Shown here piece after piece: positions 3,954-60,016 of a DNA stretch of 64,000 bases. How positions within the stretch are numbered: position 1 is the first letter of the stretch; each line of letters begins with the position of its first letter. The stretch comes from Holophagales bacterium UBA2201 (GTDB taxonomy: Bacteria; Acidobacteriota; Thermoanaerobaculia; UBA2201). Both the position numbers and the translations under genes were made by a program. The stretch covers positions 2,623 through 66,622 of the forward strand of contig DCUZ01000073.1 in NCBI GenBank assembly GCA_002327305.1. Direction: 5' to 3'. Under the pieces are notes generated by a model. That model was not told where the DNA came from and ran no database searches. It saw only the letters and a program-made list of their open reading frames with translations.

Positions 3954-4015
3954 TCCTTCGCCTCTTCCCGTTTCTCTTCTCCCGTCCCCCTTTCCACGGA
4001 GGAGAGGGCCCGCCC

Positions 4016-4798: not shown

Positions 4799-4887
4799 AG
4801 AACCTCCTTCGCGAAATCTGGGTCTAACCCTACACGCATCGCCGTTCCCTTGTCAAGTTTGCGGAGGGGCGGCCGGTTGAAAGCGGC

Positions 4888-6530: not shown

Positions 6531-6605
6531 GGCGCTATTATCGCAGATTGCCGGGCGGCGTGCCGGCGGTGTCCCCCCGGCGGGGGGCTGTGCTACACTG
6601 GCCCC

Positions 6606-32406: not shown

Positions 32407-32431
32407 GCAGTCCCTCCTTCGGCCCTTTCCC

Positions 32432-37477: not shown

Positions 37478-37906
37478 CTACGGGATCTCGCTGAGGGTCC
37501 AGTAGAGGTTAAGCGTGGCCATGGCCTGGAGGAACTTGTCGAAGGTGACCGGCTTGATGATGTAGCCGGCCACGTTGAGGTTGTAGGCCGAGAGGACATC
37601 CTTCTCGTCGTCGGAGGTGGTGAGGACGACGACGATCAGTTTCTTCAATTCCGGGTCGGCCCGCAGTTCCCGCAGGAACTCGATCCCGCTCATTTTGGGC
37701 ATCCGCAGGTCCAGGAGGATGAGGTTGGGCAGGTGGACCATCTCCGCCCGCCGGGGGCCCCGCAGAAGGTCCAGGGCCTCCTGGCCGTTGCCCGCCACGA
37801 AGAGGGGGTTGGTGATGTTGCTCTTCTGGAACGCCCGCTTCACGTTCATCACATCGACATCGTCGTCCTCCACCAGGAGAATGCTCATGGACTGCGTTTT
37901 GGTCAC
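37478..37906 (-). CDS. single-domain CheY-like response regulator
   Basis: ILLVEDDDVD...ILLDLRMP...K. The start is at 37906 or at the MSILL at 37888. Confidence 0.8.
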   Translation of the reverse strand: MTKTQSMSILLVEDDDVDVMNVKRAFQKSNITNPLFVAGNGQEALDLLRGPRRAEMVHLPNLILLDLRMPKMSGIEFLRELRADPELKKLIVVVLTTSDDEKDVLSAYNLNVAGYIIKPVTFDKFLQAMATLNLYWTLSEIP

Positions 37907-43886: not shown

Positions 43887-45986
43887 CTACGGGTTGAGCA
43901 GGGCCTGGGCCGCGGCGCGGAGATATTTGTTCTCCGACGCGGTCACCGTCCGCAAATCTTCGGGGACAAGGGGCTTGAGAATTTCCCCGCAGATCCCCAC
44001 GGTATCGATCGCGGCGTTGTTGTGCTTGATCCACGCTTCGTTGACGAGGGGGAGGCGGTCGTCGAACGCCTGCCCCTTGCCGGGCTTGTTCCCCCGGGAG
44101 AAGCGCTCCGCGAGGAGCCGGCCATCGCCAGCGAGGACTTGGACCGTCAACCGTTCCACGAGCACCCGGCCCCGCAGGGGCGGATAGCCCCCACCCTCCC
44201 GTTCGCGCACATAGCGCCGCTCCATCATTTCCCGGTCGACCCGGACCTCCAGGGGACCGAACCGCTGCATCATCACGGGTTGGGAGAGCGCGGCCTTCAG
44301 GCGGGCCACCCTGGGATCGGGAAGCGGGACCGCCTCCTGGTTGAACCGGCGGACGCGATCTCGCAAACCCTCGTCCTCGATGGCGTCCAGGCGGTCCATT
44401 TCGTACAGGCGGCGCCAGAGCGCCTCGCGCACATCCTCGTCCGGTTCCGTCGCCGCCCTGCGGGCCAGGACGACGGGATCGCGCACCATGGAGACGGCCT
44501 CGGTCCGCAGGCGCCAGTCGGGGCCGTTCTCAAGATAGGCGGCCAGCAGCGCCGGGTCGCTCAGGCGGCGAAGGGCGGTTTCGCGGACCCCGGTGCTGGG
44601 GTCGTCCCGAAGAATGCGATCGAGAAGGGGAGGGTCGAGCAGGCGGCTGACCGCATATTTTCGAACCAGCGCGGAGGGGTCCTCTTGGGCCGTCCGGGCG
44701 AAGATCGCCGGAGTCCCCGGGAGGGACCGGACCGCTTCGGCCCTCACCTCCCCGTCGGGATCCAGAAGGATCCAGTTCAGCGCGTTCGGGTCGGTCAGGC
44801 GCACCACCGCCTCCTTCCGCGCCTCGGGCGAGGGGTCGCGCCGCGCGATCTCCTCCAGCAGGACCTGATTCGACAGCCGGGAAGCCGCCCGGGCCCGGGT
44901 CCCTCCGTCCCCATCCTCGCGGGCCACGCGGGCCAGAAAGGCCTGGTCCTCCACGCGGGAAGTGGCGGCCCGCCGCACTTCGGGAGCGGGGTCCCCATCG
45001 GCCAGCCGGTAAAGGAGGTCCGGGTCCCGGACGGCCGCGACCGCGGCGCGGCGGACCTCGGCCGGTTGGCTGGGGTCATCCAGCAGCCGGAGCGCGTCCA
45101 CGCCGGAAAGCCGGGCCGCCGCGGCGGCGCGCACGGGGAGAGGCGCGGAGGGATCGAAAGCCGTCCGGCGGAGGACCTCCCCGTCCTCCGTCCGACCGAG
45201 GGCCAGAATGCGCGCGTCCGGCGCCGTTTCCAAAAGGGCCAGCCGGGCCAGGGTCCCGGGATCGCGGATCCCCATCACGGCCCTTTTCCGGACTGCCGGG
45301 TCTCTTGTCTCCCTGGCCAGCCGGGCCAGGCCCTCCGCGTCGTCCAGCGCCGTCGCGGCCGCCAGGCGGAGGTCGGGATCGGGATCGTCGAGGGCGATGG
45401 GGATCAGGGATTGCGGAAGGGTCAGACGGCGGACCGCGGTCTCGCGGACCTCGGGGTCCGGATCGGTTTGGATGATCTCGAGAAGAACGGTTTCGTTGGA
45501 AAGACGCCCCGCCGTTTCCTGACGGATGAAGGGCTCTTCGTCTGAGCGGGCCGTTTCCGCCAGAAGGAGGGGGTCCGTCACCCGGGCCAGGGCCTTCTGC
45601 CGGAGGAACCAGTCCCCCTTTCGCGCGAGACGGGCAAGGGCTTCCGGGTCGTCCAGATGGTCGATGGCCTCGACCCGGACATCCTTCCATCGCGACTCCC
45701 ACGCCACGCGCTCCAGGTCGGCCGGGTCCTTCAGCCGGTCCACGGCCGCCAGGGCCAGGTGGATGTCGGGTGCGGCGATGGCCAGCCGCAGGGCGCCGGG
45801 GTCCGGGGCGGTTTCCGTTTTGACGGGCAGAGGGGCGGTGGTGCAGGACAGGACCAGAGCCCATAGGATGACGGCGGCGGCCCTGCGCAGCCCCGCGGGA
45901 GGCGCGGCGGGACGGAGGGGATCGGGGGAGGCGGAACGGGAGGAAGAGGATCGCAAGAGGTCTCCTTTACGGGGCGCGTCCTTCAT
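43887..45986 (-). CDS. secreted HEAT / PBS-lyase-like repeat protein (paralog of 54993..57239)
   Basis: Many DPDPEVRETAVRRL-type repeats, a signal or lipoprotein-like sequence (AVILWALVLSC), and a conserved non-repeat C-terminal domain (ERRYVREREGGGYPPLRGR...). The start is uncertain; the ATG at 45984-45986 was chosen. Confidence 0.7.
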   Translation of the reverse strand: MKDAPRKGDLLRSSSSRSASPDPLRPAAPPAGLRRAAAVILWALVLSCTTAPLPVKTETAPDPGALRLAIAAPDIHLALAAVDRLKDPADLERVAWESRWKDVRVEAIDHLDDPEALARLARKGDWFLRQKALARVTDPLLLAETARSDEEPFIRQETAGRLSNETVLLEIIQTDPDPEVRETAVRRLTLPQSLIPIALDDPDPDLRLAAATALDDAEGLARLARETRDPAVRKRAVMGIRDPGTLARLALLETAPDARILALGRTEDGEVLRRTAFDPSAPLPVRAAAAARLSGVDALRLLDDPSQPAEVRRAAVAAVRDPDLLYRLADGDPAPEVRRAATSRVEDQAFLARVAREDGDGGTRARAASRLSNQVLLEEIARRDPSPEARKEAVVRLTDPNALNWILLDPDGEVRAEAVRSLPGTPAIFARTAQEDPSALVRKYAVSRLLDPPLLDRILRDDPSTGVRETALRRLSDPALLAAYLENGPDWRLRTEAVSMVRDPVVLARRAATEPDEDVREALWRRLYEMDRLDAIEDEGLRDRVRRFNQEAVPLPDPRVARLKAALSQPVMMQRFGPLEVRVDREMMERRYVREREGGGYPPLRGRVLVERLTVQVLAGDGRLLAERFSRGNKPGKGQAFDDRLPLVNEAWIKHNNAAIDTVGICGEILKPLVPEDLRTVTASENKYLRAAAQALLNP

Positions 45987-46075: not shown

Positions 46076-49000
46076 TCACCGGTTGCAGTAGCTGTCGGCC
46101 GTGCGCACCACCGGGCCCGTGGCGAAGCCCAGGGGCCCCTCGGCCGCAAAACCGTTGTCGCCGGTCACCAGGAAGAAGAGGGCGGGGGCTTCGCCCGTCA
46201 GTCCGGCATCCAGGTCCACGCCGGTCAGGGTGAGCATCCCTTCCGCGTCGGGGCCCGTCCATCCGGACAGCGAACACAACGCGTCCCCTTCGGCGGGATT
46301 GGTGACCAGGAACGGCGCCGTGGCGGCCGTCTTGGAGACATAGACCTGATAATGCGAGGCCCCCACTTCCTCGAACCGAAGGTCCACGAGGGCGGGGTCG
46401 GTGTTCTTGGCCGCCTTCAGCCGATGGTCCGGAATGCCGGAAACTTCCGGAGGGGCGGCCGCGGCGCAGGTGCCGGCCGCAACGTCGGAGCAGTCCCATC
46501 CGCCGCCGGGAGGCGTGTAATTGATGCGAAGGATGGGTTGGTAGGCCGGATTGGTCGTGTAGTCGTTGGAGGCGAACTGATAGGTCCGTTCACCTTGGTT
46601 GTTTTCGGTGTTGTCCTGGAGCATGAGTCCGTGGTTGGCGACTGCGCCGTCGTGCCAGTTTTGCACCAGCGTTGCGAGGCCGGTCCAGATCTTCCACCCG
46701 GTCGTGATCCCGGCTGCTATTGATGACTGGACCGTGGCGTTATAATTAGCGCTCATGTTCGTCCAGGTGGCGCCTGTCTCCGTCCAAGCGGTACTCAGAT
46801 AATGGACATTCAGCGTTCGGGTGTCCGAGGCCGCCGCCGTGCAGTACAGTTCCAGTTGGGCCGTGTTAATGGTGGATCCGGCCGGAATGGAGGAGAGGTC
46901 GAAATTAAGCAGCGCCCTCCGGTTCCTTTGCGTGCCCTGTTGGCGCAAACTCGTGACATACAGAGTGGAGGCTGTACCGTAGTTGGTGCTCGAGCTGTCC
47001 TGCTGGATATAGGTGTCGGCAATCGAGGGCTGGATGGCCAAATCAACGGGCGTTCCTCCCCCAAGGTTCTCTCCCACGGTGGCGCTGAACGCGTCGGATT
47101 CATTCGCCCCGGCCGGGGTCAGCTCGGTGCAGGTCTTGGTGACGATGTCGAAGCCGATGTCGGTTCCGCATCCAAAGGACGCCTCAAAGTCGTCGTCAAT
47201 GACGAATTCGAAGGTATAGACCGCGGTTCCGCCGACGGCCATGGCGCCGTAGAGGCCCGGATTGTTGCACACGGTGATCCCGTTGCCGGCCAGTTGCGCC
47301 GTGACGGCGGTGGCCCCGGCGTCGCCCGTGTTGCGCAGGGTCACCACGACGCTGTATTTCTCGCCCGGTTCGGCGTTCCCGTCGCCGTCGCCGGTGATCT
47401 GGGCCGGCACACCGTGCGAGAGATAGACGATGTTCGGAAGGCAGACGGTTGTGGTGGTGGAACAGGCCCCGTTGGCGCTGGTTCCGCAGGCGTTCTTGGC
47501 CTTGATATAGTAGCTGTATTGCGCATTCCCGGTCAGGCCGGTGTTGGTGTAGGTGGTGGCGCCGCCGGTGGTGGAGACGACCTGCGTCGCGCCGGTGCAG
47601 TTCGCGCCCGGGTTGCGCCACACCTCGTAGTCGGAAGCGCCGGAGACGGCGCTCCAGCTCAGGGCCACGCTGGTGCAGCCGGGGGTCAGCGCCGGGGCGC
47701 CGGGCGCGGCGGGAGTGGCGAGCGTGGTGGTGGTGGCGCAGGCCCCGTTGGCGCTGGTTCCGCAGGCGTTCTTGGCCTTGATGAAGTAACTGTATTGCGT
47801 GCCGGTGGTCAGGCCGGTGTTGGTGTAGGTGGTGGCGCCGCCGGTGGTGGAGACGACCTGCGTCGCACCGGTGCAGTTCGCGCCCGGGTTGCGCCACACC
47901 TCGTAGTCGGAGGCGCCGGAGACGGCGCTCCAGCTCAGGGCCACGCTGGTGCAGGAGGGGGTGAGGGCGGGGGCGGCGGGGGCCGTCGGAACGGCCAGGC
48001 GCACGCCGGCGTCGCAGGCGCTGGCGGGGCCGGCGCACGAACCGTTCAACGCCACGACCCAGTACTGGTAGGAGGTCCCGGCCACGGCGCTGGCGTCGGT
48101 ATACGGGCTGGTAACGCCGGTGAAGGTGTTCTGGGCCGTGCCGCAGACTGTGCCGCGCAGGACATTGTAACCGGTGGCGCCGGAGGCGGTGTTCCAAGTC
48201 ACCTGCACGTCGGTGCACCGGCTGTCGGTGGCCGCTACGCCCGTGGGGGCGGCGGGGGTGGCGAGGCGGGTGGCGGTGCGGCAATTGCTGTAGGCCGATT
48301 CGTTGACACCGCCGCCGTCGCAGGCGCCCTTGATGACATAGGCGTATTGGGTCCCGCCCACGGCGGAAGTATCGGCATACGTGGTGCCGGTGACGGGGCC
48401 GGCGATCTTGGCATAGGTCCCGCCGCAGGTTCCCTCCTTGCGGTAGACATTGTAGGAAAGGGTGGTGCCGGTTCCGGCGGACCAGGCCAGGTTCACGCCG
48501 CTGCAGTCCCCGGCGGCGGCGGTGAGGTTCGGGGCTCCCGGGGCGGTGCAGGTGCCGCACTGATCGAATTTGAAGGAGGCGATGTTTGTGGCGCTGTTGT
48601 TCGCCCCCTCTTCGTACATCCCGAAGAACCAGAAGGTGCAGTCGTCCGCCGGATCAACGCCCATGCCGGCATAGTCGCCCCAGCGGTCATAGGTGCTCTG
48701 GTAGCTGGTGCCGGCCTGGATGGTGTTGTCGACGGAGGAGAGGGTGCCGAGGGTGTCGGTGGAGAGGCGTCCGGCGTAGTAGGCCCCCGCGTAGGAGGAA
48801 CCGCTGGTGCGGGTATAGCCCAGGGCGATGTTGCCGCTTCCGTCCATCGCCACGCTGGTGACGCCCCGGTGGTAGGCGTCGTTGGCCAGGACCCCCTCCT
48901 GGTACTTGGTCCAGTTACCGCTTCCGGGAGGGGTGCGGCGCAGTTCGAACCAGTGGACGGCGGACTGGTTGGTGCCGTCCACGTCCTCCACGAATCCCCC

Positions 49001-50164
49001 CACGAGGGTCTCGTGCGTGGACCAGTTGCGGTATTGCAGGGGGAAATGGATGGGCTCGCGGATGGGGTCCAGCAGGCGCGTGGTCCCCGACTGAGGCATA
49101 CAGCCGAACTGGGTGGTGCCGCACACCGTCTGGTCCCAATCGGTCAACTGGGCGCTCGTCAGCTGGGTGAACGAGCCGGTGGGGGTGGAGCCCCAGGTGA
49201 CCTTGAACTCCCAGATCTCCATCAGGTCGCAGTTGGTGCAGGTGCCGCCGTGGATCTCGGTGTCCCGGGGGCGGAGGAAGAAGCCGCCGGAAGAGGAGGG
49301 CGGCAGGGTGGCGCCGGCGTGGTTGGCGGGCATCGTCAATTGGAAGCCCCAGCCCGAAAGACCGGTGACGGTGAATGAGAGGAGCCGGGCCGTCTGGCCG
49401 GCCAGCATCTTGTCGCGTTCGAGGGCGATGACATAGCCGCCGTTGTTGGCCCCCACGAAATAGGCGCTATTGTCGGCCGCGGGCCAGACGCCGTAGTGGG
49501 GGTAGTCCTGGTCGGTTCCTGGGGGGTTGAAAGGGTAATAGTAATAGGTGCCGGTAGGATCGGGCGAGGTGGAAACATAGACACAGAGGTTGTCGATGGA
49601 GGAGTCGAATTCGCTGATCAACCACCGGTCAGCGGCCCGGTCGTAGAGGATGATGGGGTCGCAGTAGCCGTTGGTGCAGGGGGAGGCGGTGGCCAGAGTT
49701 TCCATGGACTTGTTGGCCAGGAGGGTTGCGCCGGTCTTGTCGAGGACCCGGACCACCGACCCGCTGCTGCCGTTGACTCCCTGAACCACATGGTTGGGCC
49801 CCACATCCCCGGTGGGATCCGGGGGGGGGACGCCGTAGTCGAGCCCTTTGACGTTGACGATGGTGGTCCCAAAGGCCTTCTGGGTCCTGGAGTCGGCGGG
49901 TTGGGCCTCCGACTGCAGTTTGGCGAGAGGGTTGTCGTGAGGCGGGAAATCCAGTTCCGGGACGAAAATGCCGTGGGTGTCCCTCTGCTTCCCTTCGATG
50001 CTCATCAGGTTTTCCATGTCGGGAGTGTCGGGCAGATCCCGCAGGGCTGGGGTGATGGACGGCACCACGGGTTCGGAAACATAGACGGGCTCGTCGGCTG
50101 TTGCCGGGAACGCTCCCGTCATCAGGAAGAACACGGCGAGGATAATCGATGGACGAAACGGCAT
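46076..50164 (-). CDS. giant (~1360 aa) cysteine-rich secreted multidomain protein, paralog of 50711..54979
   Basis: Signal peptide MPFRPSIILAVFFLMTGAFPATA with an AAGGAG RBS. A conserved ~520-aa N-terminal domain (TGDVGPNH, GYCDPI, YPHYGVWP, RWGDYAGMGVDP, DDCTFWF) is followed by FN3-like repeats and a C-terminal domain ending in Cys. Confidence 0.75.
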   Translation of the reverse strand: MPFRPSIILAVFFLMTGAFPATADEPVYVSEPVVPSITPALRDLPDTPDMENLMSIEGKQRDTHGIFVPELDFPPHDNPLAKLQSEAQPADSRTQKAFGTTIVNVKGLDYGVPPPDPTGDVGPNHVVQGVNGSSGSVVRVLDKTGATLLANKSMETLATASPCTNGYCDPIILYDRAADRWLISEFDSSIDNLCVYVSTSPDPTGTYYYYPFNPPGTDQDYPHYGVWPAADNSAYFVGANNGGYVIALERDKMLAGQTARLLSFTVTGLSGWGFQLTMPANHAGATLPPSSSGGFFLRPRDTEIHGGTCTNCDLMEIWEFKVTWGSTPTGSFTQLTSAQLTDWDQTVCGTTQFGCMPQSGTTRLLDPIREPIHFPLQYRNWSTHETLVGGFVEDVDGTNQSAVHWFELRRTPPGSGNWTKYQEGVLANDAYHRGVTSVAMDGSGNIALGYTRTSGSSYAGAYYAGRLSTDTLGTLSSVDNTIQAGTSYQSTYDRWGDYAGMGVDPADDCTFWFFGMYEEGANNSATNIASFKFDQCGTCTAPGAPNLTAAAGDCSGVNLAWSAGTGTTLSYNVYRKEGTCGGTYAKIAGPVTGTTYADTSAVGGTQYAYVIKGACDGGGVNESAYSNCRTATRLATPAAPTGVAATDSRCTDVQVTWNTASGATGYNVLRGTVCGTAQNTFTGVTSPYTDASAVAGTSYQYWVVALNGSCAGPASACDAGVRLAVPTAPAAPALTPSCTSVALSWSAVSGASDYEVWRNPGANCTGATQVVSTTGGATTYTNTGLTTGTQYSYFIKAKNACGTSANGACATTTTLATPAAPGAPALTPGCTSVALSWSAVSGASDYEVWRNPGANCTGATQVVSTTGGATTYTNTGLTGNAQYSYYIKAKNACGTSANGACSTTTTVCLPNIVYLSHGVPAQITGDGDGNAEPGEKYSVVVTLRNTGDAGATAVTAQLAGNGITVCNNPGLYGAMAVGGTAVYTFEFVIDDDFEASFGCGTDIGFDIVTKTCTELTPAGANESDAFSATVGENLGGGTPVDLAIQPSIADTYIQQDSSSTNYGTASTLYVTSLRQQGTQRNRRALLNFDLSSIPAGSTINTAQLELYCTAAASDTRTLNVHYLSTAWTETGATWTNMSANYNATVQSSIAAGITTGWKIWTGLATLVQNWHDGAVANHGLMLQDNTENNQGERTYQFASNDYTTNPAYQPILRINYTPPGGGWDCSDVAAGTCAAAAPPEVSGIPDHRLKAAKNTDPALVDLRFEEVGASHYQVYVSKTAATAPFLVTNPAEGDALCSLSGWTGPDAEGMLTLTGVDLDAGLTGEAPALFFLVTGDNGFAAEGPLGFATGPVVRTADSYCNR

Positions 50165-50180
50165 TTTACACTCCTTAACA

Positions 50181-50201
50181 ATCAGGCGATATCTGCCTGA
50201 T
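50181..50201. promoter_or_regulatory. perfect inverted repeat ATCAGGC-GATATCT-GCCTGAT 17 nt upstream of the giant-protein start codon (candidate operator)
   Basis: 7-bp arms around a palindromic GATATC centre, inside an AT-rich 545-bp intergenic region. Confidence 0.35.
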
Positions 50202-50644
50202 TGCAAATGAACTTTGCGTAATCAATTGAAAGGGTAGCACTAAATGATATCTTATGTCAAGGATGTATTATGATTGTTGAAGGGTGTTTAGGAATTTCAT
50301 GGATTTGGAGGCGCCGGGGGCAAGCTTTGTGTGATCGTTCTCCGGGTGGAGCACTTTCGCGCTTATCGTTCGGCCAACGCCTTCAGGAACGATTCATTTT
50401 GATGGAGTCGCTGAGGGCTTCGTAATAGTACTCCGACTTGCAGGAGCGGCCGAACGCCTGGCTGTGTCGCTGGCGGTGCCGGACCGGAGCAGGTCACCGC
50501 CTTTGGACCTGGCTTTGATTTTCAGAGAAAGGTCGCCCTGACAGGAGGAGGTCTCCATGACGAACAACCCATTATTTTCCAGCAGTTTTTATGGAAGTAC
50601 CGGGTGGTTGGCCCTTGTCTCATTCGCCCGTTGAGACAAGCAAT

Positions 50645-50670
50645 TGCCCCCGCCGATGGTCCGGCGGGGG
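50645..50670 (-). terminator. GC-rich hairpin GCCCCCGCCG-ATGGTC-CGGCGGGGGC downstream of the 50711..54979 gene
   Basis: 10-bp perfect stem about 40 nt after the stop. Confidence 0.5.
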
Positions 50671-50710
50671 CAGGGGCGTTCGGGAGGAGCGGGGGGGGGC
50701 GCAGCGCCTG

Positions 50711-53700
50711 CTAACAGGGGCCTGAGGAGTTGAGGACGCGGGGGCCGGTGGAGGCGGCGCCGAAGGGGCCCGATCCGCCGGAGCCCTCGCCGCGGATGAG
50801 ATACCAGTAGAAGCCGCCGCTCACCCCTGAGGGATCGTCGGCGGAGAGGTCCACCGAGGTCTGGTCGGGAGCGGGGGTGGTGGCGCGGAGGCAGGCATCG
50901 GGGACGCCGTCCACCAGGAGGGATGGCAGGTCGGCCGGGACGCCGCGAAAGACGCTGTAGCCGTTGGTCGCCTTGGGGTCGGCCGCCCAGGCCAGCGCCC
51001 CGCCCGTCCAATGGGCGGTCTGCACCGCCGCCGGGTAGGGGGCGCCGGTGACGCAGGGGTTGTCCACGATGCCGGTGACCTTGACGTTGTCCAGTTCCCA
51101 GTACCAGTCGTCCTGCGCCACATAGCGGAAGCGCACCTTGCAGTTGGTCTGCCCGGCGTAGGGGAGCAGATTGAGGGTGCCGTGATTGTAAAGCGAGGTG
51201 GTGCCCGTGGTGGCCGTGTAGGTGATCAGGTTGGTCCAGGATGGCGTCTGGTCCGACATGAAGTCCACGTAGCCGTACTCGTCGGGGGTGCTATAGACGT
51301 AGAAATAATGGTCGTATTCCAGGTTGGCCGATGAGGCGCCGGCCGGGAGGTTGAAGGCCGGCGTGATCAACCACTCGTCCTGGTTTTCGACCGGGCTGTA
51401 GTTGACCCGGGCGATGTAACCGTAGGAACCGCCCTTGTTATAGCGGTACCAATCGTTGGTATTCCAGGTTCCCGGGATGCTTCCGTGGTCCTCGATCGTC
51501 CACCCGGCGGGCGGATTGTCGCCATAGGTGCCCCAGGCGCCCTCGAAGTTCTCCAGCGCCAGGGCGGTGAAGGGCCCCCCGCCGCTTCCCGTGGGGGCGC
51601 CGGAGCGCTCCACGGTGTTGGTCTCCTCAATTCCGTTCTGGACGGTGACGGCGCGGGTCTTGTAGTAGTAGGGGGTCCCGCTTTCGAGAGAGTCGGTGTC
51701 CTGGTAGGTGGTGCCGGTGACCCCGGCGGCGATGCGGTTGCCGATGGCCGGCGTAAAGCCGGGCGAGGTGTCGCGGTAGACATTGTAGGTGACGCCCCCC
51801 GGGCAGGGGGTCGTGCCGGCGTCCCAGTCCAGGTCGAGGGTGCAGGTGGCCTCGCCGGGGTTGGTGACGGAGCCCAGTCCGACGAAGGTGGGCTCGGCCT
51901 GCCAGGTGATCTGCGTGGGGAGGGCGTCCGACATGGCGGAGGAACAGCCCGACCCCTTGATATGGCAGTTGTAGAGGTGCGTCCCGGTGTCGTTGGCGCT
52001 GTAGGTGGAGGCCGTGGCTCCGCCGATGGGGTTGAGGCCGTCGTACCACTGATAGGTCATTCCCACGCCGCCGGTGGGGCTGGCACTCAGGAGTTGGGCC
52101 GTCCCCGCGCACAGCGTCAGCGGCCCGTCCGGGATGACGCTCACAAGAGAGGGGTTGTTGGCACAGGATGAGCCGGTGGAGCAGGGCACGGGAACGAACC
52201 CAGTGACGAGCACGTTGTCCACCATCCAGTACCAGCCATAGGTCCCCGTGTATCGGAACCGGACCTTGACCTGGGCGGCCGTGCCCGCCAGGGCTGTGAT
52301 GTCCAGCGTCCTGTGGCTGGCCGTCGAGGAGGTTCCTACGGTCGTTGTCCAAGAGGTATGGGTCGTCCAGGTGCTCCCGTTGTTGTTGGACACATCGATG
52401 TAGGCCACGCTGCCGCTGTAGTGATAGTAGTAGGTGTCGAACTCCAGCGTCACCGTGGACGCTCCCGTGCAGTCAAAGGCCGGCGTGATCAGGCTATCAT
52501 CCTGCGAGACCCCGCTTCCATCCCTGTCGCTGTCGATGATCTCGATGGGGGCGGTCATCCCGGCGGGGATGGTCCTCCCGCCAGGATTGAGCGTCGTCCA
52601 CCGTTGCGTGCCGGTGCCGCCGTTCGCGATCGTCCAGCCCGCGGGAGGGTCGCCGGTCCCAAAGGCCTCGTCGATGTAGGTCTGGGGCCCCCCGCCGGGC
52701 CCGAAGGGGGCACCACTCTCCTCATGAGTGTTGGCCTCCTCGAAGCCGTTGACGCTGTCCACCGAGCGGACCACGTAGTAATAGGTGGTGCCGCTCGCGA
52801 GATTGTCCAGGTCCTGGTAGGTGGTTCCGGTGACGCCCGCGGCGATGCGGTTGCCCTCCCCGGGGGTGAAGCCGGAGGTAGTGGAGCGGTAGATGTTGTA
52901 GGTGACCGAACCGGAGCAGTTGGAGGTGCCTGAGCTCCAGGAGAGGTTGAGGATGCAGGTGGCGGAAGCCGGGTTGATTACGCTCGCAATGCCGGCGAAA
53001 GTCGGGGACAGGGTGCACGCGCCTGTGGCGAGGGCGTTGACCTCGCTGGAGGTGGGGGAGGTGCAGGCCGCGCCGTCGTTGGACTTGACGACATAGTAAT
53101 AGCGGGTCCCGCCGGAGACGGTGCCGTCCGTGTAGATGTAGGTGGGGCTGTTGTCGTCCGCAACCTCGGCGATCTGCTCGTAGGGGCCGCCCGCTGTGGT
53201 GGAACGGTACACCCAATACCGTGTGATGGTGGAGGTGGCGGAGTCGTTCCACGAAATGTTGATCTCGTTGTCGCCGGGGACCCAGGCCGATGCCGTCGGG
53301 GCCGGCGGGACGGCGAGACAGCCGCAGGCGTCGAACTTGAAGGCGGCGATCTTGGTCTGGCCGCTTCCGCCGTATTCGGTGACGAACCAGAAGGTGCAGC
53401 CGTCGGAGGGATCCACACCGATGCCGGCGTAGTCGCCCCACCGCTCGTTGTTGGTCTTGGAGGTGGAGGCGTCCTGGATCACATACTCGTAGTAGGGCAT
53501 GGTCCCCAGGGGGTCGGTGGCGAGGCGTCCGGCGTAGTAGATGGAAGGGTAGTAGGGGGCGAGCGAACCCGTGCGGGTATATCCGACGGCGATGTTGCCG
53601 GAGGAGTCCATGGCGGCCGAGCACACGGAGCGGTTGATGGTGTTGGACCCGGAGGTGGTGGCCAGGACCCCCTCCTGGTGGGAGACCCAGGCGCCGCTTC

Positions 53701-54979
53701 CGGTCTTGCGCATTTCAAACCAGTGGACCCCGGCTCGGTCACTGCCGACGTCCTCGGCGAAGCACCCGACGAGGGTCTGATAGTCTCCCCAGTTGCGGTA
53801 TTGGAGGGGGAAGTGGAGGGGCTCGCGGATGGGGTCAATCTTCTGGCTTGTCCCGGGTTGGGGCATACAGTTCCAATTGCCGGAACTTCCGCAGAGGGTG
53901 TGGTCGTACTCGGCGATCTTGATGTCCGGCAGCTTGGTCATGACGGAGTTGCCCGGCGTGGCCCAGTCCACCAGGACGGAATAGATCTCCATGATGTCGC
54001 ACGGTTCCGGGGAACACGATTTGCCGGTATGGATCTCGGTGTCCACGGGGCGGAGGAAGTAGCCCGGCTGGTTGCCGGCGGGAGGAAGCCCGTCCCCCTC
54101 GTGTCCGCCCGGAAGGAAGAGCTGAAAGCCGAAGGCCGACAGGGAGGGGGGGGTGAACTTCATGAAGGTGGCGGGAAGGCCCTGGAGCATCTTGGCCCGG
54201 TCCAGGGCCACCAGGTCCCTTCCGCCGCTTCCCGCGTTGAGGCCGATGAGGTAGGAGCCCTCCAGGTACTGGCCGTCGCCGTTGGTGTCAAGGGGCCAGA
54301 CGCCGTATTTGGGATAATCGGGAGTACCGGTCTCCACGTTCAGGAACTGGTAGGCGTACCAGGTTCCCGTGGGATCGGGTGTGGTGGAGACATAGACGCA
54401 CAGATGGCCGCCACTGGAGGGGAACTCGCTCAAGATCCACCGGTCGGCGGCCTCGTCGTAGTTGACGATGGGGTCGCAGTAACCGGTGTTGCAAGGCGAG
54501 CCGCTTGCGAGGGAGTCGAGCTCGAAGTGGGCCTGCTGGGTCCCGCTTTTGTTGAAGATGCGGGCGATGGAGGTGCCGCCGCTGTTGGATCCCTGAACGA
54601 AGTGGTTCGGGCCCACGTCGCCGGTGGTGTCGGGGGGGGAGGAGGAGGACTGGTACCCCGCGAAGTTGAGGATGGGGGTGCCGAAGGCCAGCGCCTGGGG
54701 CGGGTCGGGGGCGGGGGCGCGGTCCTGCAGGTCGATGAGGGGATTGTAAAAGGGCTTGCCGTCCTGGCTGGGGCCGGAAAAACCGTAGTCCTGCCGCCTC
54801 GCCGCCTCAGGGCCGTAAGGGGTCCACGATTCGTCTATCGGGGGGAGGTCGCGGACGGCGGTGCTGATGGTCGGGGCGAACGGTTCGCTCACATAGGTGG
54901 GGCCGCTGTCGGCGCCGAGCCACGCGGCGCACGCCAAGGCGAGGCAGATCACAAATGTGCGGAATACCGGATGGTTCAT
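50711..54979 (-). CDS. giant (~1420 aa) cysteine-rich secreted multidomain protein with two MAM-like / jelly-roll domains, paralog of 46076..50164
   Basis: Signal peptide MNHPVFRTFVICLALACAAWLGA with a GGAGG RBS. The N-terminal ~520 aa are homologous to the Big1 N-terminal domain. It also has FN3-like repeats and two domains with WTTL...RFRY...WYW(M/E)(V/L)DNV motifs. The last residue is Cys. Confidence 0.75.
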   Translation of the reverse strand: MNHPVFRTFVICLALACAAWLGADSGPTYVSEPFAPTISTAVRDLPPIDESWTPYGPEAARRQDYGFSGPSQDGKPFYNPLIDLQDRAPAPDPPQALAFGTPILNFAGYQSSSSPPDTTGDVGPNHFVQGSNSGGTSIARIFNKSGTQQAHFELDSLASGSPCNTGYCDPIVNYDEAADRWILSEFPSSGGHLCVYVSTTPDPTGTWYAYQFLNVETGTPDYPKYGVWPLDTNGDGQYLEGSYLIGLNAGSGGRDLVALDRAKMLQGLPATFMKFTPPSLSAFGFQLFLPGGHEGDGLPPAGNQPGYFLRPVDTEIHTGKSCSPEPCDIMEIYSVLVDWATPGNSVMTKLPDIKIAEYDHTLCGSSGNWNCMPQPGTSQKIDPIREPLHFPLQYRNWGDYQTLVGCFAEDVGSDRAGVHWFEMRKTGSGAWVSHQEGVLATTSGSNTINRSVCSAAMDSSGNIAVGYTRTGSLAPYYPSIYYAGRLATDPLGTMPYYEYVIQDASTSKTNNERWGDYAGIGVDPSDGCTFWFVTEYGGSGQTKIAAFKFDACGCLAVPPAPTASAWVPGDNEINISWNDSATSTITRYWVYRSTTAGGPYEQIAEVADDNSPTYIYTDGTVSGGTRYYYVVKSNDGAACTSPTSSEVNALATGACTLSPTFAGIASVINPASATCILNLSWSSGTSNCSGSVTYNIYRSTTSGFTPGEGNRIAAGVTGTTYQDLDNLASGTTYYYVVRSVDSVNGFEEANTHEESGAPFGPGGGPQTYIDEAFGTGDPPAGWTIANGGTGTQRWTTLNPGGRTIPAGMTAPIEIIDSDRDGSGVSQDDSLITPAFDCTGASTVTLEFDTYYYHYSGSVAYIDVSNNNGSTWTTHTSWTTTVGTSSTASHRTLDITALAGTAAQVKVRFRYTGTYGWYWMVDNVLVTGFVPVPCSTGSSCANNPSLVSVIPDGPLTLCAGTAQLLSASPTGGVGMTYQWYDGLNPIGGATASTYSANDTGTHLYNCHIKGSGCSSAMSDALPTQITWQAEPTFVGLGSVTNPGEATCTLDLDWDAGTTPCPGGVTYNVYRDTSPGFTPAIGNRIAAGVTGTTYQDTDSLESGTPYYYKTRAVTVQNGIEETNTVERSGAPTGSGGGPFTALALENFEGAWGTYGDNPPAGWTIEDHGSIPGTWNTNDWYRYNKGGSYGYIARVNYSPVENQDEWLITPAFNLPAGASSANLEYDHYFYVYSTPDEYGYVDFMSDQTPSWTNLITYTATTGTTSLYNHGTLNLLPYAGQTNCKVRFRYVAQDDWYWELDNVKVTGIVDNPCVTGAPYPAAVQTAHWTGGALAWAADPKATNGYSVFRGVPADLPSLLVDGVPDACLRATTPAPDQTSVDLSADDPSGVSGGFYWYLIRGEGSGGSGPFGAASTGPRVLNSSGPC

Positions 54980-54992
54980 GATCCCTCCTGTG

Positions 54993-57239
54993 TTAGGGCT
55001 GGAGCAGGGCGTCGGCGGCGGAGCGGAGATACTTGTCCCTCCCTCCCGCGAACGCCTTCCAGAGTTCCGGGCCCCCGGGCTCGATGAGCGCGGCGGCGAT
55101 GGCCTCGAAATCGAAATCAGCGGCATTATACCTTAGATAATAGTCATCAAGCCGGGGGTAATGCTCGTCGAAGACCTGGACTTTGCCGGCCTTTGCGCCG
55201 CGGAATTCCCGATCGAGGACCGGCTTCCCGTCCGAACCGACAACCCGGACCACCCACTGTTCCACGCGGGTCCGGCCCCGCAGGGGCGGGTAGCCGCCCT
55301 CCGGCCGCTCCTGGGAATAGCGGCGCTCGTCGAAGCGCAGGGTTGCGTCCACGGAGAGCGGTCCGAGGCGTTCCTGAACGGCCGGATCGAGGAGGGCCTC
55401 CATCAGGCGGACGAGGCGGGGGTCCGTGACCTGGCCGTCGAGCTCCAGCATGCGGAACGCTACGGCCCGGCGGATTGGAGCCGGGCCCTCGGCGAAGGCC
55501 TTTTGGAGGGCGGTGTGGTCCTGGAACTCCAGCACCTCAGCGACCCTCCCTCCCAGGGGCCCATCCGGGGGATGGAGATCCGCCCGGACGAGGGGACGGA
55601 CCGGGTGGACCAGGTCGCGCCATATCCGCTCCCGCAGGCCGGGGTCGGCCACATGGCCGACCACCCGCATTTCATACAGCCGCTTGCACGCGGCACGCCG
55701 TACATCCTCATCGGCGTCTGTCAGCGCCACCCGCTCCAGCACGGCGGGGTCGCTCATCTGCAGGGCCGCCTGTTTTCTCAGCTTCCAGTCCGATCCGTCG
55801 GACAGGTAGGCCTCCAGGGTCTCGGGGTCGGTCAGCCGCCCCATGGCCGCGGAGCGGACGGAGGCGCTCGCGTCGGTCCGGATGACCCGGCTCAGGATGG
55901 CCGGGTCCAGCAGGCGGACGCAGGCGTTTTTGCGGACCAGCGGCGAGGGGTCCTTCAGCGCCAGGTCCTGGAACAGCGCCGGTTCGTCCGGCAGTTCCAG
56001 GACGGCCCTGGCCCGGACGGCACCGTCGGGGTCCTCCAGGGCCGACCTCAGCGCGGCGGGGTCGCCCACCCGGGCGACGGCCTCCCGTCTCACCAGGGGC
56101 GAAGGGTCCTCCCGGAGGATCCGGGCCAACAGAGCGCGATCGTTCAGCCGCCCCGCGGCGCGGGCGCGGACGGCCTCGCTCCCGTCCTCCCGAGCGAGGC
56201 GGCCCAGGGTCCTGGGGTCTTCCAGCCGTCCCACCGCCGCGAGCCGGATCCCGGGGTCGTCCGTTCCTTCAGCGAGTTTGGCCAAAAGCGCCGGGTCCTT
56301 AACCTGTCCGATGGCCGCCAGGCGGACCGGTAGGGGCTGGTCGGGCCGGGTCAGTTGGGTCAGGAGGGCGGCATCGTCCAGGCGCGCGGCAGTCGCGGCG
56401 CGCACGGCCGGATCCTCGTCGCCCTTCCGGGCGATGGCGCGAAAGAGTTCGGGATCGTCCATCATCCGGATCGCCAGGACCCTCAGGGCGGGGGCGTCCT
56501 TCCCCATGGCCACCGCTCCGTAGAGCGCCGGGTCGCCGATCTTTGCCATGGCCTGTTCGCGGAATTCGGCGTCGCTCGTCTCCCCGGCGATGGCCAGGAG
56601 GAGGTACTTGTCGGTCAGGGCGCCCAGGGCGGCCTTCCGGACGCCGCGGTCATCGGAGGCGCGGACGATGGAGGCCAGCACCTCAGGGTCGCGGATGCTC
56701 CAGGCCGCCGCCTCGCGCACGCGGGGCTCGGGGTCGCGCGCGACGATGTCCCGCAGGACGGCCGGGTCCTTCAACAATTTCGCCGCGTTCTCACGCACCA
56801 GCGCGTCGGGGTCGGTCCGGGCCGCCTCCGCCAGAAGATCCTGGTTCCGCACCCGTCCGAGGGCCAGGTCGCGCAGGTACCAGTCGCCCTCGCGGAGTAC
56901 CTTTTCAACGAGGGCGGCGTCCGTGAGGCGTCGGATGGCGTCGGCCCGCACCGCCTTGCGCGGCGCCTCCAGCGCCAGCCGGCCCAGAAGGCCCTGGTCC
57001 TCCAGGCGAAGGACGGCTTCGAGGGCCACCTGCAGGGCGGGGTCGTTCATGGCCAGGTCGAACAGCTTCTCCGGGTCGTTTAGCCCGCGCACCTCCTCCA
57101 GCCGGTCCAGGACGGCATAGGTGGCCAGCGGCGCGGAGGGATGCCCCTCCTCGGGTTCCATCTCCTGGGCGGTCAGAGGCGCGGCGCCGGCCAGGAGCAG
57201 GCCCAGGACGGAAGAGAGGAAGACGGTGAGCAATCGCAT
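54993..57239 (-). CDS. secreted HEAT / PBS-lyase-like repeat protein (paralog of 43887..45986)
   Basis: Signal peptide MRLLTVFLSSVLGLLLAGAAPLTAQE. HEAT-like repeats. The C-terminal domain is conserved with the paralog (ERRYSQERPEGGYPPLRGR...). It ends 13 nt before the Big2 start. Confidence 0.75.
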   Translation of the reverse strand: MRLLTVFLSSVLGLLLAGAAPLTAQEMEPEEGHPSAPLATYAVLDRLEEVRGLNDPEKLFDLAMNDPALQVALEAVLRLEDQGLLGRLALEAPRKAVRADAIRRLTDAALVEKVLREGDWYLRDLALGRVRNQDLLAEAARTDPDALVRENAAKLLKDPAVLRDIVARDPEPRVREAAAWSIRDPEVLASIVRASDDRGVRKAALGALTDKYLLLAIAGETSDAEFREQAMAKIGDPALYGAVAMGKDAPALRVLAIRMMDDPELFRAIARKGDEDPAVRAATAARLDDAALLTQLTRPDQPLPVRLAAIGQVKDPALLAKLAEGTDDPGIRLAAVGRLEDPRTLGRLAREDGSEAVRARAAGRLNDRALLARILREDPSPLVRREAVARVGDPAALRSALEDPDGAVRARAVLELPDEPALFQDLALKDPSPLVRKNACVRLLDPAILSRVIRTDASASVRSAAMGRLTDPETLEAYLSDGSDWKLRKQAALQMSDPAVLERVALTDADEDVRRAACKRLYEMRVVGHVADPGLRERIWRDLVHPVRPLVRADLHPPDGPLGGRVAEVLEFQDHTALQKAFAEGPAPIRRAVAFRMLELDGQVTDPRLVRLMEALLDPAVQERLGPLSVDATLRFDERRYSQERPEGGYPPLRGRTRVEQWVVRVVGSDGKPVLDREFRGAKAGKVQVFDEHYPRLDDYYLRYNAADFDFEAIAAALIEPGGPELWKAFAGGRDKYLRSAADALLQP

Positions 57240-57344: not shown

Positions 57345-59867
57345 CTATTCTCTCGGGTCCTCGAAGAACGCCCTGATCCGCATGCGCCCGGCCTCGTTTT
57401 TCCAAGTCTCGTGGAAGAGGCGGATCTCGGCGTCGTCCCAATTCGTCCGCCGCGCCTCCCCCGCCAGGGAGGCCGCCATTTCCAGCTCCCCCCGGCCCTT
57501 CAGGATGGAAGCGCGCATGAACAGCGTCCGGGCCTCGAAGAACCGGTCCAGCAGGGTCACGAACTCCGGGTCGGCGCCGGCGGGGAAAGCGAGGAGCCGG
57601 TCCAGGGCCTTCCGGTTGCGCCCGGCCAGGAGCTCCTCCATGTTGGCGGACCATGTGAAGGGGTGGAGGGAGGCGCCGGCCGGGTATTCGAGGACCGGCC
57701 GATCGTCGGTGACGGGGGGGACATCGGCCGTCCAGGCCTCCAGGTCCCGCGCCTCCATCAGCAAAAGCGCCAGCCAGTCCGCGCTCCGGGCCAGCCCTGA
57801 CCGGAGCAGGTCCTGCCGCACGGGGAGCCGTTCCAGGTTCCGGTCCCAATCGCCGGGATCGACGCGCAGGGGTTCGGTCCCCCCCAGGAGGATGGCGTGG
57901 GCGTGGCCCAGCCAGAGGGAGGATTCGGGGAAGACGCGGCGGAAGGTGGCCGCGGCCCTTTGCAGGTCCTCCGCCGTGATCCACCGAAGAGGCAGGTACT
58001 GCGCAACCCTACCCCCGGGTTTCAAGCGGCGCCGGACGAGTTCGAAATACTCCCGCGTGTAGAGGTTGCCCGACCCCAGGGCCGGGTGGGTGGGGTCGCA
58101 GGTGATGACATCGTAGGACCGGTCGTTCCGCAGGAGCCACTGCCGCCCGTCCCCCGGGATGAGGCGCACGCGCGGGTCCTCCAGCACCCCGCGGTTGTAG
58201 GCCTCGTAAAGAGGGGCCGCCCCGGCGATCTCCGGGCACAGTTCCACGCAGTCCACCCGCTCCACGGGCCAGGCCAGGACATGACGGGCCGTCACCCCCA
58301 GGCCGAACCCGACGACCAGGACCTCCCCGGCGTCGGGTGAGGCCAGGAGGGGGAGGTGGGCCAGCATCCGGACCACCTTCAGGGCGTCGTAGGTGGTGCC
58401 GCACACCGCGCTGTTGTTGATGTAACTCCACCGGACGCCCGTCCGGGCGTCCTCCACGACGGCGATGGTCCCCTCCACGGCGTCCCGGTGGAAAAGGAGC
58501 CGGTCGCTCCGATGGGCGTCGCGGAACACGGAGATGGGGAGGGGTTTGGGGAGATGGTCGTGGAGAAACAATGCCCCCGCCGTCAGGGCCACGGCGGCGG
58601 TGACCCAGAGGCCCGCCCGCGTGCGTTCCGCATCGCCGGCCGCACGGCGCGTCGCCAGGGCCAGGACGCCGTAGGCGATGCCGATGAGGAGGATGGAGCG
58701 CAGGGGGCCCGCCGCCGGCATCAGGAGGAACGCCGCCGCGGGGGCGCCGAGGACGGCGCCAAGGGTGTTGAGGCCGTAGAGCGTCCCCATCTCCCCGCCG
58801 GGCGGTTCCTTTCTGCCGGGGTGGAGGGCCACCAGGAGGGGGAGGAGGGTCCCCATGAGAAAGGCGGAAGGGAGAACGAGAAGGCCGGAGAGCATCAGGG
58901 GCGGGATCCAAATCTGCCGCCAGGGCGCCAGCAGAAGGGAGCGGAACCGGAAGAGGAGATCGGGACCCCAGACTGAGAGGGGGATGGTGGCCAGGGCCAA
59001 AACGGCAAGCCCCCCCAGAACCGCGGTCAGCCGGGCCGCCGCCCGTCCTTCGCGCCTGGAGAGGCGGCCGCCCCAGAGGCATCCCAGGCCGTATCCGGCC
59101 AGATAGGCGGCTAGGGTGAGGCCGAATGCCGTGTGGCGGTTGGGCAGGTAAACGGCCAGCAGACGCATCCAGTTCGTCTCCAGGGCCATGCCCAGAAACC
59201 CCAGGAGGGCCGCGGCGGCCGGGAGGAGGAAGGGGGAGGGGGCGTCGGGCCGGTCAAGGCGCGCCGGTTCCCGAAGTGGAGGGCCGGCGGCGATGGGGAT
59301 GGCGGAGAGGAACAGGACGGCGCCGGTGAAGAACGACGCGGTGATCCCCAGCCGGGGGATCAGGAGGAAGGTGGCGGTGAGGACCCCGGCGACCCCCCCC
59401 AGGGTGTTCCAGCCCAGGATGCGCCCCGTGCGGGTGCCGCGGTCCCCCTCTGCAGCGGTGGAGCGGTAGAGGAGGGGGAGGATGGCGCCCAGGAACAGGC
59501 CGGCGCCCGAAAGCAGAAGCCAGGCGATGGCGGCCTCCGCCGCCCAGGGCAGACGCCCGGTCACGAGAAGGGGGAGGAGGAAGGGGAGCATGGCCATCCA
59601 TGCGGCCCCGGCCGACTGGTTCCACGAAATGGCGGATCGGCCGAGGCGCCCCGCCAACGGGAGGCGTCCGGCTGCCCACGCCCCGAGCCCCATTCCGCCG
59701 AGGATGCCGGAAAGGACCACGGCCCAGGCCCCGGCGGTGGTCCCCAGCAGGACGGCCAGGCGGCGGGCCGCCGCCGGTTCAAGGCAGAACAGGGCGAAGC
59801 CGCACAAAAACGCGGCCGTCGCCATGCGCCGCGGATGCATGATCTTCATGGGTTGAAAGTGTACCAC
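57345..59867 (-). CDS. fused polytopic membrane domain (MFS-like) / spermidine-synthase-like aminopropyltransferase
   Basis: About 12 TM helices at the N-terminus. The C-terminal PABS-like fold motifs are VLVVGFGLGVTARH and ITCDPTHP. The exact start among the N-terminal Mets is uncertain. Confidence 0.8.
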   Translation of the reverse strand: MVHFQPMKIMHPRRMATAAFLCGFALFCLEPAAARRLAVLLGTTAGAWAVVLSGILGGMGLGAWAAGRLPLAGRLGRSAISWNQSAGAAWMAMLPFLLPLLVTGRLPWAAEAAIAWLLLSGAGLFLGAILPLLYRSTAAEGDRGTRTGRILGWNTLGGVAGVLTATFLLIPRLGITASFFTGAVLFLSAIPIAAGPPLREPARLDRPDAPSPFLLPAAAALLGFLGMALETNWMRLLAVYLPNRHTAFGLTLAAYLAGYGLGCLWGGRLSRREGRAAARLTAVLGGLAVLALATIPLSVWGPDLLFRFRSLLLAPWRQIWIPPLMLSGLLVLPSAFLMGTLLPLLVALHPGRKEPPGGEMGTLYGLNTLGAVLGAPAAAFLLMPAAGPLRSILLIGIAYGVLALATRRAAGDAERTRAGLWVTAAVALTAGALFLHDHLPKPLPISVFRDAHRSDRLLFHRDAVEGTIAVVEDARTGVRWSYINNSAVCGTTYDALKVVRMLAHLPLLASPDAGEVLVVGFGLGVTARHVLAWPVERVDCVELCPEIAGAAPLYEAYNRGVLEDPRVRLIPGDGRQWLLRNDRSYDVITCDPTHPALGSGNLYTREYFELVRRRLKPGGRVAQYLPLRWITAEDLQRAAATFRRVFPESSLWLGHAHAILLGGTEPLRVDPGDWDRNLERLPVRQDLLRSGLARSADWLALLLMEARDLEAWTADVPPVTDDRPVLEYPAGASLHPFTWSANMEELLAGRNRKALDRLLAFPAGADPEFVTLLDRFFEARTLFMRASILKGRGELEMAASLAGEARRTNWDDAEIRLFHETWKNEAGRMRIRAFFEDPRE

Positions 59868-59930: not shown

Positions 59931-60016
59931 GTATGCAATTACTTGGGTGAACAATCGAATCCATCGTTCGTCATAGACCCTGTAATTCCATGGGTCGGCA
60001 GATCAAGGAGGCAACC

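Follow-up and report, generated by a model that had tools for sequence, protein, structure and literature searches.

Several described systems come close to the proteins considered here. The C-terminal domain (CTD) of type IX secretion system (T9SS) cargo is a terminal beta-sandwich of about 80–110 residues. It closes large exported proteases and adhesins whose heads are unrelated, and a genome encodes many of them. The choice-of-anchor J domain received its NCBIfam name because its members end in different sorting signals. In beta-propellers, the positions before the inner strands usually line the top entrance of the central channel. The locus compared with these systems is a stretch of 64,000 nucleotides from Holophagales bacterium UBA2201 (contig DCUZ01000073.1 of assembly GCA_002327305.1), hereafter the window, and in it the two genes Big1 and Big2. 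Each encodes a predicted exported protein composed of a large N-terminal head, several middle modules and a C-terminal tail that ends in or close to a cysteine. The head and the tail are new families of familiar kinds, a propeller and an fn3-like end domain, and neither is described in the searched libraries.

An earlier note on this DNA had proposed two giant secreted paralogues at this place, and both open reading frames (ORFs) are indeed found. Big1 and Big2 display 43% identity over 747 columns (BLASTP, expectation value E 4e-163), and their heads, the first 540 or so residues, are also 43% identical. The alignment shows the two to be paralogues, predicted to be exported modular extracellular proteins. 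All the N-terminal motif blocks that had been listed are visible in it, with the correction that Big1 reads DRWGDYAGMGVDPADDCTFWF (DRWGDY), and ERWGDY is present only in Big2. Both N-termini resemble typical signal peptides, so that Sec export is predicted. The 1362-aa call of Big1 is also present on GCA_002402485.1 and on JGI/ENA contigs, and the 1422-aa call of Big2 on four public contigs; the calls of both genes recur on GCA_002402485.1 and on several JGI, ENA and Logan contigs. The features of the pair are as follows.

46076..50164, minus strand: Big1, complete gene for an exported multidomain protein of 1362 aa (ORF; identical public gene call)
50096..50164, minus strand: Big1 signal peptide, residues 1–23, MPFRPSIILAVFFLMTGAFPATA (n-h-c layout read from the sequence)
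48551..50095, minus strand: Big1 seven-bladed beta-propeller head, residues ~24–538, unannotated family
47450..48544, minus strand: Big1 four fn3 units, residues ~541–905, units 3 and 4 a near-identical tandem duplication (Pfam fn3 and tail-profile matches)
47075..47422, minus strand: Big1 CARDB-like beta-sandwich, residues ~915–1030, a weak assignment (Pfam CARDB E 0.018, under the cutoff)
46523..47026, minus strand: Big1 DNRLRE/CBM96 module, residues 1047–1214 (NF033679, PF24517)
46079..46429, minus strand: Big1 terminal fn3-like tail, subtype a, residues ~1246–1362, ...LFFLVTGDNG..EGPLG...RTADSYCNR (tail profile E 4e-33)
50711..54979, minus strand: Big2, complete gene for an exported multidomain protein of 1422 aa (ORF; public gene calls)
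54911..54979, minus strand: Big2 signal peptide, residues 1–23, MNHPVFRTFVICLALACAAWLGA (read from the sequence)
53315..54910, minus strand: Big2 seven-bladed beta-propeller head, residues ~24–555, paralogue of the Big1 head (N-domain profile E 4e-231)
53009..53314, minus strand: Big2 fn3-like unit, residues ~556–657 (alignment to the Big1 fn3 units)
52181..53008, minus strand: Big2 repeat unit A, fn3-like plus choice-of-anchor J, residues 658–933 (internal duplication; NF038128)
51896..52180, minus strand: Big2 Cys-containing Ig-like linker domain, residues ~934–1028 (read from the sequence; no Pfam or NCBIfam match)
51053..51895, minus strand: Big2 repeat unit B, fn3-like plus choice-of-anchor J, residues 1029–1309 (NF038128; duplication)
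50714..51034, minus strand: Big2 terminal fn3-like tail, subtype b, residues ~1316–1422, ...GGFYWYLIRG...GPRVLNSSGPC (tail profile E 6e-26)
50645..50672, minus strand: GC-rich terminator-like hairpin about 40 nt past the Big2 stop (12-bp stem, 10 GC pairs)

The head had been called unassigned, and at the level of sequence families this holds. The heads of Big1 and Big2 have no NCBIfam match, and 60 members of the family gave no Pfam match in the head at E≤0.1, the matches being confined to the C-terminal accessory modules. Searches against all PDB chains with phmmer and with a 68-sequence profile returned only noise. The literature yielded no relevant paper on head motifs such as RWGDY and GDVGPN. 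Nevertheless the family is large. Among the candidates scored, E≤1e-3 was reached by at least 1172 protein clusters, and species-representative genomes contain at least 585 confirmed stretches. The carriers include Acidobacteriota, Chloroflexota, Gammaproteobacteria (Lysobacterales, Aliikangiella, Pseudoalteromonas), Myxococcota, Streptomyces, Kiritimatiellae, Planctomycetes and others. Their names in the source databases are all taken from accessory modules, for example "P-domain-containing", "PKD domain-containing" or "DUF11 domain-containing". The sequence searches thus show the head to be a large family, spread across many phyla, that none of the searched libraries names.

The AlphaFold2 model of the head, built on the 68-sequence alignment, is all-beta with a predicted local distance difference test (pLDDT) value of 89.9 and a predicted template modelling score (pTM) of 0.90. 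Its strands fall into seven four-stranded blades, as in a seven-bladed beta-propeller. Structure prediction and Foldseek therefore place the head as a generic propeller and not as a new fold. The Foldseek matches are all weak (E≥1.5e-5, template modelling (TM) scores 0.2–0.44) and comprise inulinase, PL25 ulvan lyase, neuraminidases, semaphorins and integrin alpha, with sortilin also touched. Because the fold is common and the matches are weak, no specific family can be assigned. The WD40 repeat family was considered and rejected, the heads of 60 members having no match to WD40 or any other Pfam family at E≤0.1.

The conservation within the head is concentrated at particular positions. The alignment of 60 sequences, which are about 40% identical, contains 45 invariant columns. 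In Big1 numbering, an invariant acidic, basic or aromatic residue precedes the predicted inner strand of nearly every blade (D116, D169, D220/Y221, E370, R433, R494/D497/Y498), and further invariant residues lie at strand ends (N131, E185, N240, D301, D313, D394). An N-terminal V-S-x-P-V-x-P...DLRDLP segment is also conserved in the family. The descriptions of the N-terminal domain as Cys-rich and of the core as disulfide-rich were overstated: there are 10–12 Cys per ~545 aa, three of them invariant and two or three nearly so. C163, C194, C348, C355, C509 and C536 fit three probable disulfides.

The many invariant polar residues, together with the hydrolase-type accessory modules and tail companions, suggest that the head is more likely catalytic than purely adhesive. 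Relatives of the head carry P-domain, PPC, PKD, CarboxypepD_reg and InhA-like MAM modules, which are typical of secreted hydrolases. One could instead take the head for a distant offshoot of a propeller enzyme family already described, such as the GH33-type sialidases, the PL24/PL25 ulvan lyases, GH145 or the Vgb-type lyases. Foldseek does list PL25 ulvan lyase, sialidases and GH32/43/62 at E 1e-5 to 1e-3, and one Asp-box-like S-x-T-P-D-P-x-G-x-W string occurs in the head. However, the TM-scores are only 0.2–0.44 at identities of about 10%, sialidases are six-bladed while the head has seven blades, none of the 60 members matches BNR, sialidase or another Pfam family at E≤0.1, and the profile search of PDB sequences gave no result. 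We consider this descent very improbable. GH33 sialidase/BNR in particular was rejected on the blade number, the lack of any BNR or sialidase match in Pfam or NCBIfam, and Foldseek TM-scores of 0.2–0.33.

A more serious alternative is a head that binds or adheres without catalysis, in the manner of a lectin or receptor, in proteins that act as surface adhesins. The nearest structural neighbours of the head are generic scaffold propellers, and Foldseek touches integrin alpha, semaphorin and sortilin. Kelch and sortilin heads bear the same C-terminal tail, and the architecture, rich in fn3 and Ig-like spacers, is adhesin-like. On the other hand, 45 invariant positions at about 40% family identity, many of them charged, are rather what one would expect of an active site or a highly specific pocket, and most accessory modules and tail partners are of the secreted-hydrolase type. 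We consider a purely adhesive head less likely than not.

The tail is the second element common to the two proteins. Big1 ends in ...TADSYCNR and Big2 in ...NSSGPC, and the two C-terminal segments had been described as similar. Compared directly over the last 140 residues they are not (BLASTP E 3.3), so that pairwise homology was rejected as evidence. The likeness does stand at the level of profiles. A tail profile was seeded with the Big1 tail, the Big2 tail and a look-alike from a member of the head family (P0075). Among 1.84 billion representatives it matched 369 proteins at E≤1e-3, and 38 of these at E≤1e-10. Both tails are part of this profile (E 4e-33 for the Big1 and E 6e-26 for the Big2 domain). 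Word-indexed homologue searches returned no match with the Big2 tail as query and nine short fragments with the 39-tail alignment. The tails fall into subtype a (the Big1 type), subtype b (the Big2 type) and subtype c, which has two additional Cys. Profile-profile comparison (hhalign) links a to c with 97.5% probability (E 6e-12) and b to c with 98.2% (E 3e-14); it also links a directly to b (E 1.6e-4). These comparisons tie the subtypes together independently of the joint profile. By these sequence comparisons, the tails of Big1 and Big2 are one fn3-like domain family of about 105 aa whose likeness appears only at the profile level.

The position of the domain is nearly constant. Among the best 150 of the 369 matches, the domain stops no more than 14 aa before the C-terminus in 141, and the last Cys lies one to three residues from the end in 139, with -CP and -YCxR as typical endings. 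Only a mid-domain Cys, one Gly and the terminal Cys are invariant in the 39-tail alignment. No Pfam or NCBIfam model matches any of the 39 tails at E≤1. The AlphaFold2 model of the Big2 tail is moderate (pLDDT 73, with the last 13 residues below 50) and resembles a divergent fn3 domain; in addition, the internal fn3 units of Big1 and Big2 are weakly matched by the tail profile.

The heads on which the tail occurs are diverse. Among full-length carriers we found Peptidase_S8, Trypsin_2, M4-like, M6, M14, M64, Kelch, Sortilin-Vps10, NosD/beta-helix and propeller heads, mostly peptidases. The propeller is the head of 12 among the 53 carriers with 600 aa or more, and an N-terminal hydrophobic signal is present in 39 of 48 full-length carriers. 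One metagenome-assembled genome (MAG) of the Thermoanaerobaculia has genes for four or more different tail proteins, including an adjacent pair, and one metagenome contig has three consecutive tail-bearing genes, including a propeller protein; the locus search in metagenomes used the subtype-a alignment. The tail occurs on other heads; conversely, it is missing from all 79 loci of the propeller family in species-representative genomes. The head and the tail are thus independent, functionally separable modules.

A separate observation concerns short database entries. A Peptidase_M64 gene with a subtype-a tail, on an 860-kb long-read contig (L085, 8646–10381), is split into three frame-shifted gene calls, and a 126-aa "protein" (P0129) is the tail fragment of this gene. 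Short tail-only entries are hence mostly gene fragments.

It had been suggested that the tail is a sorting or attachment signal, and the test offered for it, its presence on other exported proteins, came out in its favour: the tail is found on many of them, at the C-terminus. Known sorting features, in contrast, are missing. Neither Big1, Big2 nor the 39 tails matched T9SS CTD, PEP-CTERM, LPXTG or other sorting models of NCBIfam or Pfam at E≤1, which speaks against a sorting role. Signals of the exosortase and sortase type (PEP-CTERM, LPXTG, MYXO-CTERM, GlyGly-CTERM) were not matched, and the ends ...RTADSYCNR and ...VLNSSGPC lack a hydrophobic stretch.

The suggestion in its strong form is that the tail is a true signal like the T9SS CTD, recognised by a dedicated machinery and perhaps cleaved by it or attached by way of the terminal Cys. 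It would explain why the tail is strictly terminal on many unrelated exported heads and why several tail proteins occur per genome in clusters. Choice-of-anchor J domains are also present in Big2, and the range of cargo (proteases, adhesin-like modules and, in the neighbouring gene, a C25 peptidase) recalls that of T9SS. Yet no known sorting model is matched, the tail has neither a hydrophobic helix nor a basic end, no candidate machinery was found in the window, where the C25 protein scores 30 bits against the PorU model with its cutoff of 420, and the named taxonomic range of the tail is one MAG lineage only. We regard such a signal as doubtful.

Alternatively, the tail may be a structural end-cap, a last disulfide-stapled fn3 module whose Cys ties down the chain end against carboxypeptidases, with no sorting role. 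The fn3-like fold and the weak cross-match to internal fn3 units of the same proteins agree with it, as do the two invariant Cys, which suit an intradomain disulfide, the Cys also present in the internal fn3 units of Big1, and the failure to find sorting machinery in the 64-kb window. The terminal position in 141 of 150 cases fits less well, being unexpected for an ordinary fn3 spacer, and so does the existence of a distinct family that extends over very different heads. The end-cap remains a tentative explanation, held below even confidence. The strict confinement of the tail to the chain end of diverse cargo suggests that it is a common handle for retention or sorting; since neither a machinery nor a likeness to known signals was found, a structural end-cap is about equally likely.

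The boldest version would make the tail the cargo tag of a new sorting or surface-attachment system in Thermoanaerobaculia/Holophagae-like Acidobacteriota. The near-terminal Cys would then be the processing or attachment site, the tag would mark an extracellular degradome (S8, S1, M6, M14 and M64 peptidases, Kelch, sortilin and propeller proteins), and the propeller would be a new class of secreted enzyme with a HEAT or Toastrack partner. This is unlikely as a whole; if true, it would be a functional parallel of the T9SS C-terminal domain or of exosortase signals.

Both genes have an exported HEAT-repeat protein at their side.

54993..57239, minus strand: HEAT-A, exported HEAT-repeat protein of 748 aa, whose stop lies 13 bases before the Big2 start (Pfam HEAT/HEAT_2)
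43887..45986, minus strand: HEAT-B, exported HEAT-repeat protein of 699 aa, whose start lies 89 bases downstream of the Big1 stop (699-aa gene call)

HEAT-A and HEAT-B are 41% identical (E 7e-134), and the N-terminus of HEAT-B (...VILWALVLSC) looks lipoprotein-like. The HEAT proteins share an unassigned C-terminal region of about 130 aa (GGYPPLRGR...). In five further independent loci, the gene immediately before the propeller gene on its upstream side encodes a HEAT homologue, sometimes with a 4-bp overlap:

L003, 350–2527: HEAT homologue
L004, ~3789–5960: HEAT homologue
L006, ~3825–5843: HEAT homologue
L087, 8476–10878: HEAT homologue
L092, 355–2553: HEAT homologue

The HEAT and propeller genes are thus a conserved two-gene module. 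A different partner occurs elsewhere. In 32 of the 79 species-representative loci, an exported protein or lipoprotein of about 280 aa with the motif NP[YFW]GD[VI]R[LV]R is encoded directly upstream of the propeller gene on the same strand, and one of these proteins matches Pfam Toastrack DUF4097 (E 3.5e-7). In the clustering of neighbours, antisense shadow ORFs were excluded by an overlap test. The Toastrack-type loci, which span L011–L072, come from Lysobacterales, Aliikangiella, Pseudoalteromonas, Acidobacteriota and Kiritimatiellae. Two examples are listed here.

L039, 4954–5868: Toastrack-like gene
L013, 4993–5802: Toastrack-like gene, with the propeller gene at ~6001

No Toastrack/DUF4097-like protein is encoded in the 64-kb window. 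The partner of the propeller therefore differs by clade, being an exported HEAT protein here and an exported Toastrack/DUF4097 protein in many other clades.

We favour, with moderate confidence, a reading in which the propeller is the working head of these proteins and the tail is a common C-terminal handle of exported modular proteins, pinned by its Cys. The propeller would most likely act as a hydrolase or lyase, or would at any rate bind a specific ligand, and the putative site would be a ring of conserved polar residues on top of the central channel. Its target is probably an extracellular polymer, which the downstream modules would help to bind, and it would probably work with the adjacent exported partner or be held or controlled by it. 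The terminal Cys of the tail would most likely be disulfide-bonded to the invariant mid-domain Cys, pinning the chain end to the sandwich. As a common handle, the tail may retain the large exoproteins at the cell surface or mark them for a shared step of export or retention. Several observations weigh against this picture. The recurring "D-P" before the inner strands is possibly a structural repeat motif and not an active site, and the Kelch and sortilin heads that also bear the tail make a binding role for the propeller equally compatible. The low pLDDT of the last 13 tail residues means that the proposed disulfide is not visible in the model. The absence of the tail from all 79 propeller loci counts here as well, as does the finding of no sorting enzyme or secretion component within the window.

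The middle modules of the two proteins differ. The fn3-like repeats and the DNRLRE-like module that had been read in Big1 both score above the model cutoffs. Pfam fn3 (PF00041) matches in three stretches with 74 bits against a cutoff of 25 (E 9.9e-21); repeat analysis gives four fn3 units, and there are four weak matches to the tail profile. Units 3 and 4 correspond to a 276-bp tandem repeat at 47451–47980 (1.9 copies, 92% identical), which looks like a recent module duplication and is a likely cause of the assembly breaks in short-read contigs. NF033679 (DNRLRE) is matched over positions 1–163 of 164 with 105 bits against a cutoff of 34 (E 4e-30), and PF24517 (CBM96) with 73.9 bits against 26 (E 2e-20). 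CBM96 was defined as the alginate-binding module of an alginate lyase (PMC9971899). Two domains had also been predicted in Big2, as MAM/jelly-roll-like; the two domains are there, but they are of the choice-of-anchor J type (NF038128, 80 bits against a cutoff of 30, two stretches, the best at 1143–1301). Pfam gives Big2 no MAM match, only Reelin_subrepeat-B at E 0.024; InhA-like_MAM is matched in relatives and neighbours, not in Big2, so that the MAM label came near without being exact. The two domains belong to an internal duplication in which residues 658–933 are 48% identical to residues 1029–1309 (E 4e-75). A search of the "choice-of-anchor" literature found nothing relevant.

The terminator-like hairpin behind Big2 is followed by a spacer of about 500 bp with lower GC before Big1, so that the two genes probably form separate transcripts. 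Rfam identified no RNA family in the window. Beyond the HEAT genes lies a further exoprotein gene.

59990–64000 and beyond the window end, plus strand: gingipain-like Peptidase_C25 protein with propeptide, fn3, InhA-like MAM and choice-of-anchor-J-like modules

On other contigs this protein has at least 1480 aa, and every public contig breaks inside the gene. A relative of 34% identity adjoins the tail-gene cluster of L089.

Other genes of the window are recorded here as side observations. Immediately upstream of HEAT-A, a fused membrane (major facilitator superfamily-like) and spermidine-synthase-like protein is encoded (57345–59867, minus strand; NF037959, 103 bits), and the same order of this gene and HEAT-A is kept on three other contigs. 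The large ORFs at 28294–32469 (minus), 32432–35290 (minus), 39927–42677 (plus) and 5601–8258 (plus) have a high GC content at third codon positions and almost no family matches; among the four there is one weak match to a MXAN_6640-type HExxH metalloprotease and one to delta-60 repeats. Large uncharacterised exoproteins seem to be enriched in the region. At 35456–39819 on the minus strand, within a few kb of the exoprotein genes, a response-regulator-GGDEF-EAL protein and a CHASE8-HAMP-PAS histidine kinase are encoded side by side, the two being a cyclic di-GMP signalling pair.

The head and the tail are two recurrent building blocks of exoproteins that are absent from Pfam, NCBIfam and the PDB sequences. 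The propeller head occurs in hundreds of species across phyla, including the cultivable Aliikangiella, Dokdonella and Streptomyces; its polar centre is strongly conserved, and so is the gene of its exported partner. The tail, found strictly at the chain end and closed by a Cys, is common to many secreted peptidases of poorly studied Acidobacteriota-like bacteria. Naming and testing both modules would improve the annotation of thousands of proteins that are now "hypothetical" or misnamed, their names being taken only from accessory modules. Such work could reveal a new enzyme activity, and could show how abundant bacteria of soil, sludge and sediment retain or sort their extracellular degradative enzymes.

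In comparison with known systems, the head stands apart from the described seven-bladed propellers. Its identity to WD40-type scaffolds, virginiamycin B lyase and PL25 ulvan lyase is about 10%, and it has no WD or GH repeats; for PL25 ulvan lyase, Foldseek gives E 4e-5 with TM 0.33–0.40 and 10% identity. About 300 residues are aligned with known propellers out of a head of about 520 aa, which points to large decorations, and the head differs from them in the V-S-x-P-V-x-P...DLRDLP segment, the three conserved disulfides predicted from the sequence, and export. With the GH33/BNR proteins it shares a secreted propeller followed by beta-sandwich modules, weak Foldseek matches and the single Asp-box-like string, whereas no RIP, Arg-triad or Tyr-Glu layout is recognisable in its sequence. 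Like multimodular secreted enzymes, Big1 and Big2 carry accessory modules, DNRLRE/CBM96 in the former and two choice-of-anchor J domains in the latter. In those enzymes the modules follow a known catalytic domain, whereas here they follow the propeller, and the substrate of the CBM96 founder cannot simply be carried over.

The tail resembles the fn3 domains of bacterial exoenzymes in its predicted fold, in the W...Y.V.RG...Y[YF]L[VI] strand pattern and in its weak cross-match to the proteins' own fn3 units. It differs from them in that the Pfam fn3 model misses it, in an extra helix and a Cys-ending C-terminal extension, and in its confinement to the chain end. From the T9SS CTD of Bacteroidota the tail is set apart by its invariant Cys pair with a terminal Cys, by the lack of a CTD model match, by its Thermoanaerobaculia/Acidobacteriota-like hosts and by a window in which no T9SS components are seen. 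What it has in common with the CTD is the overall plan: a terminal beta-sandwich of about 80–110 aa, placed on unrelated exported heads, many per genome.

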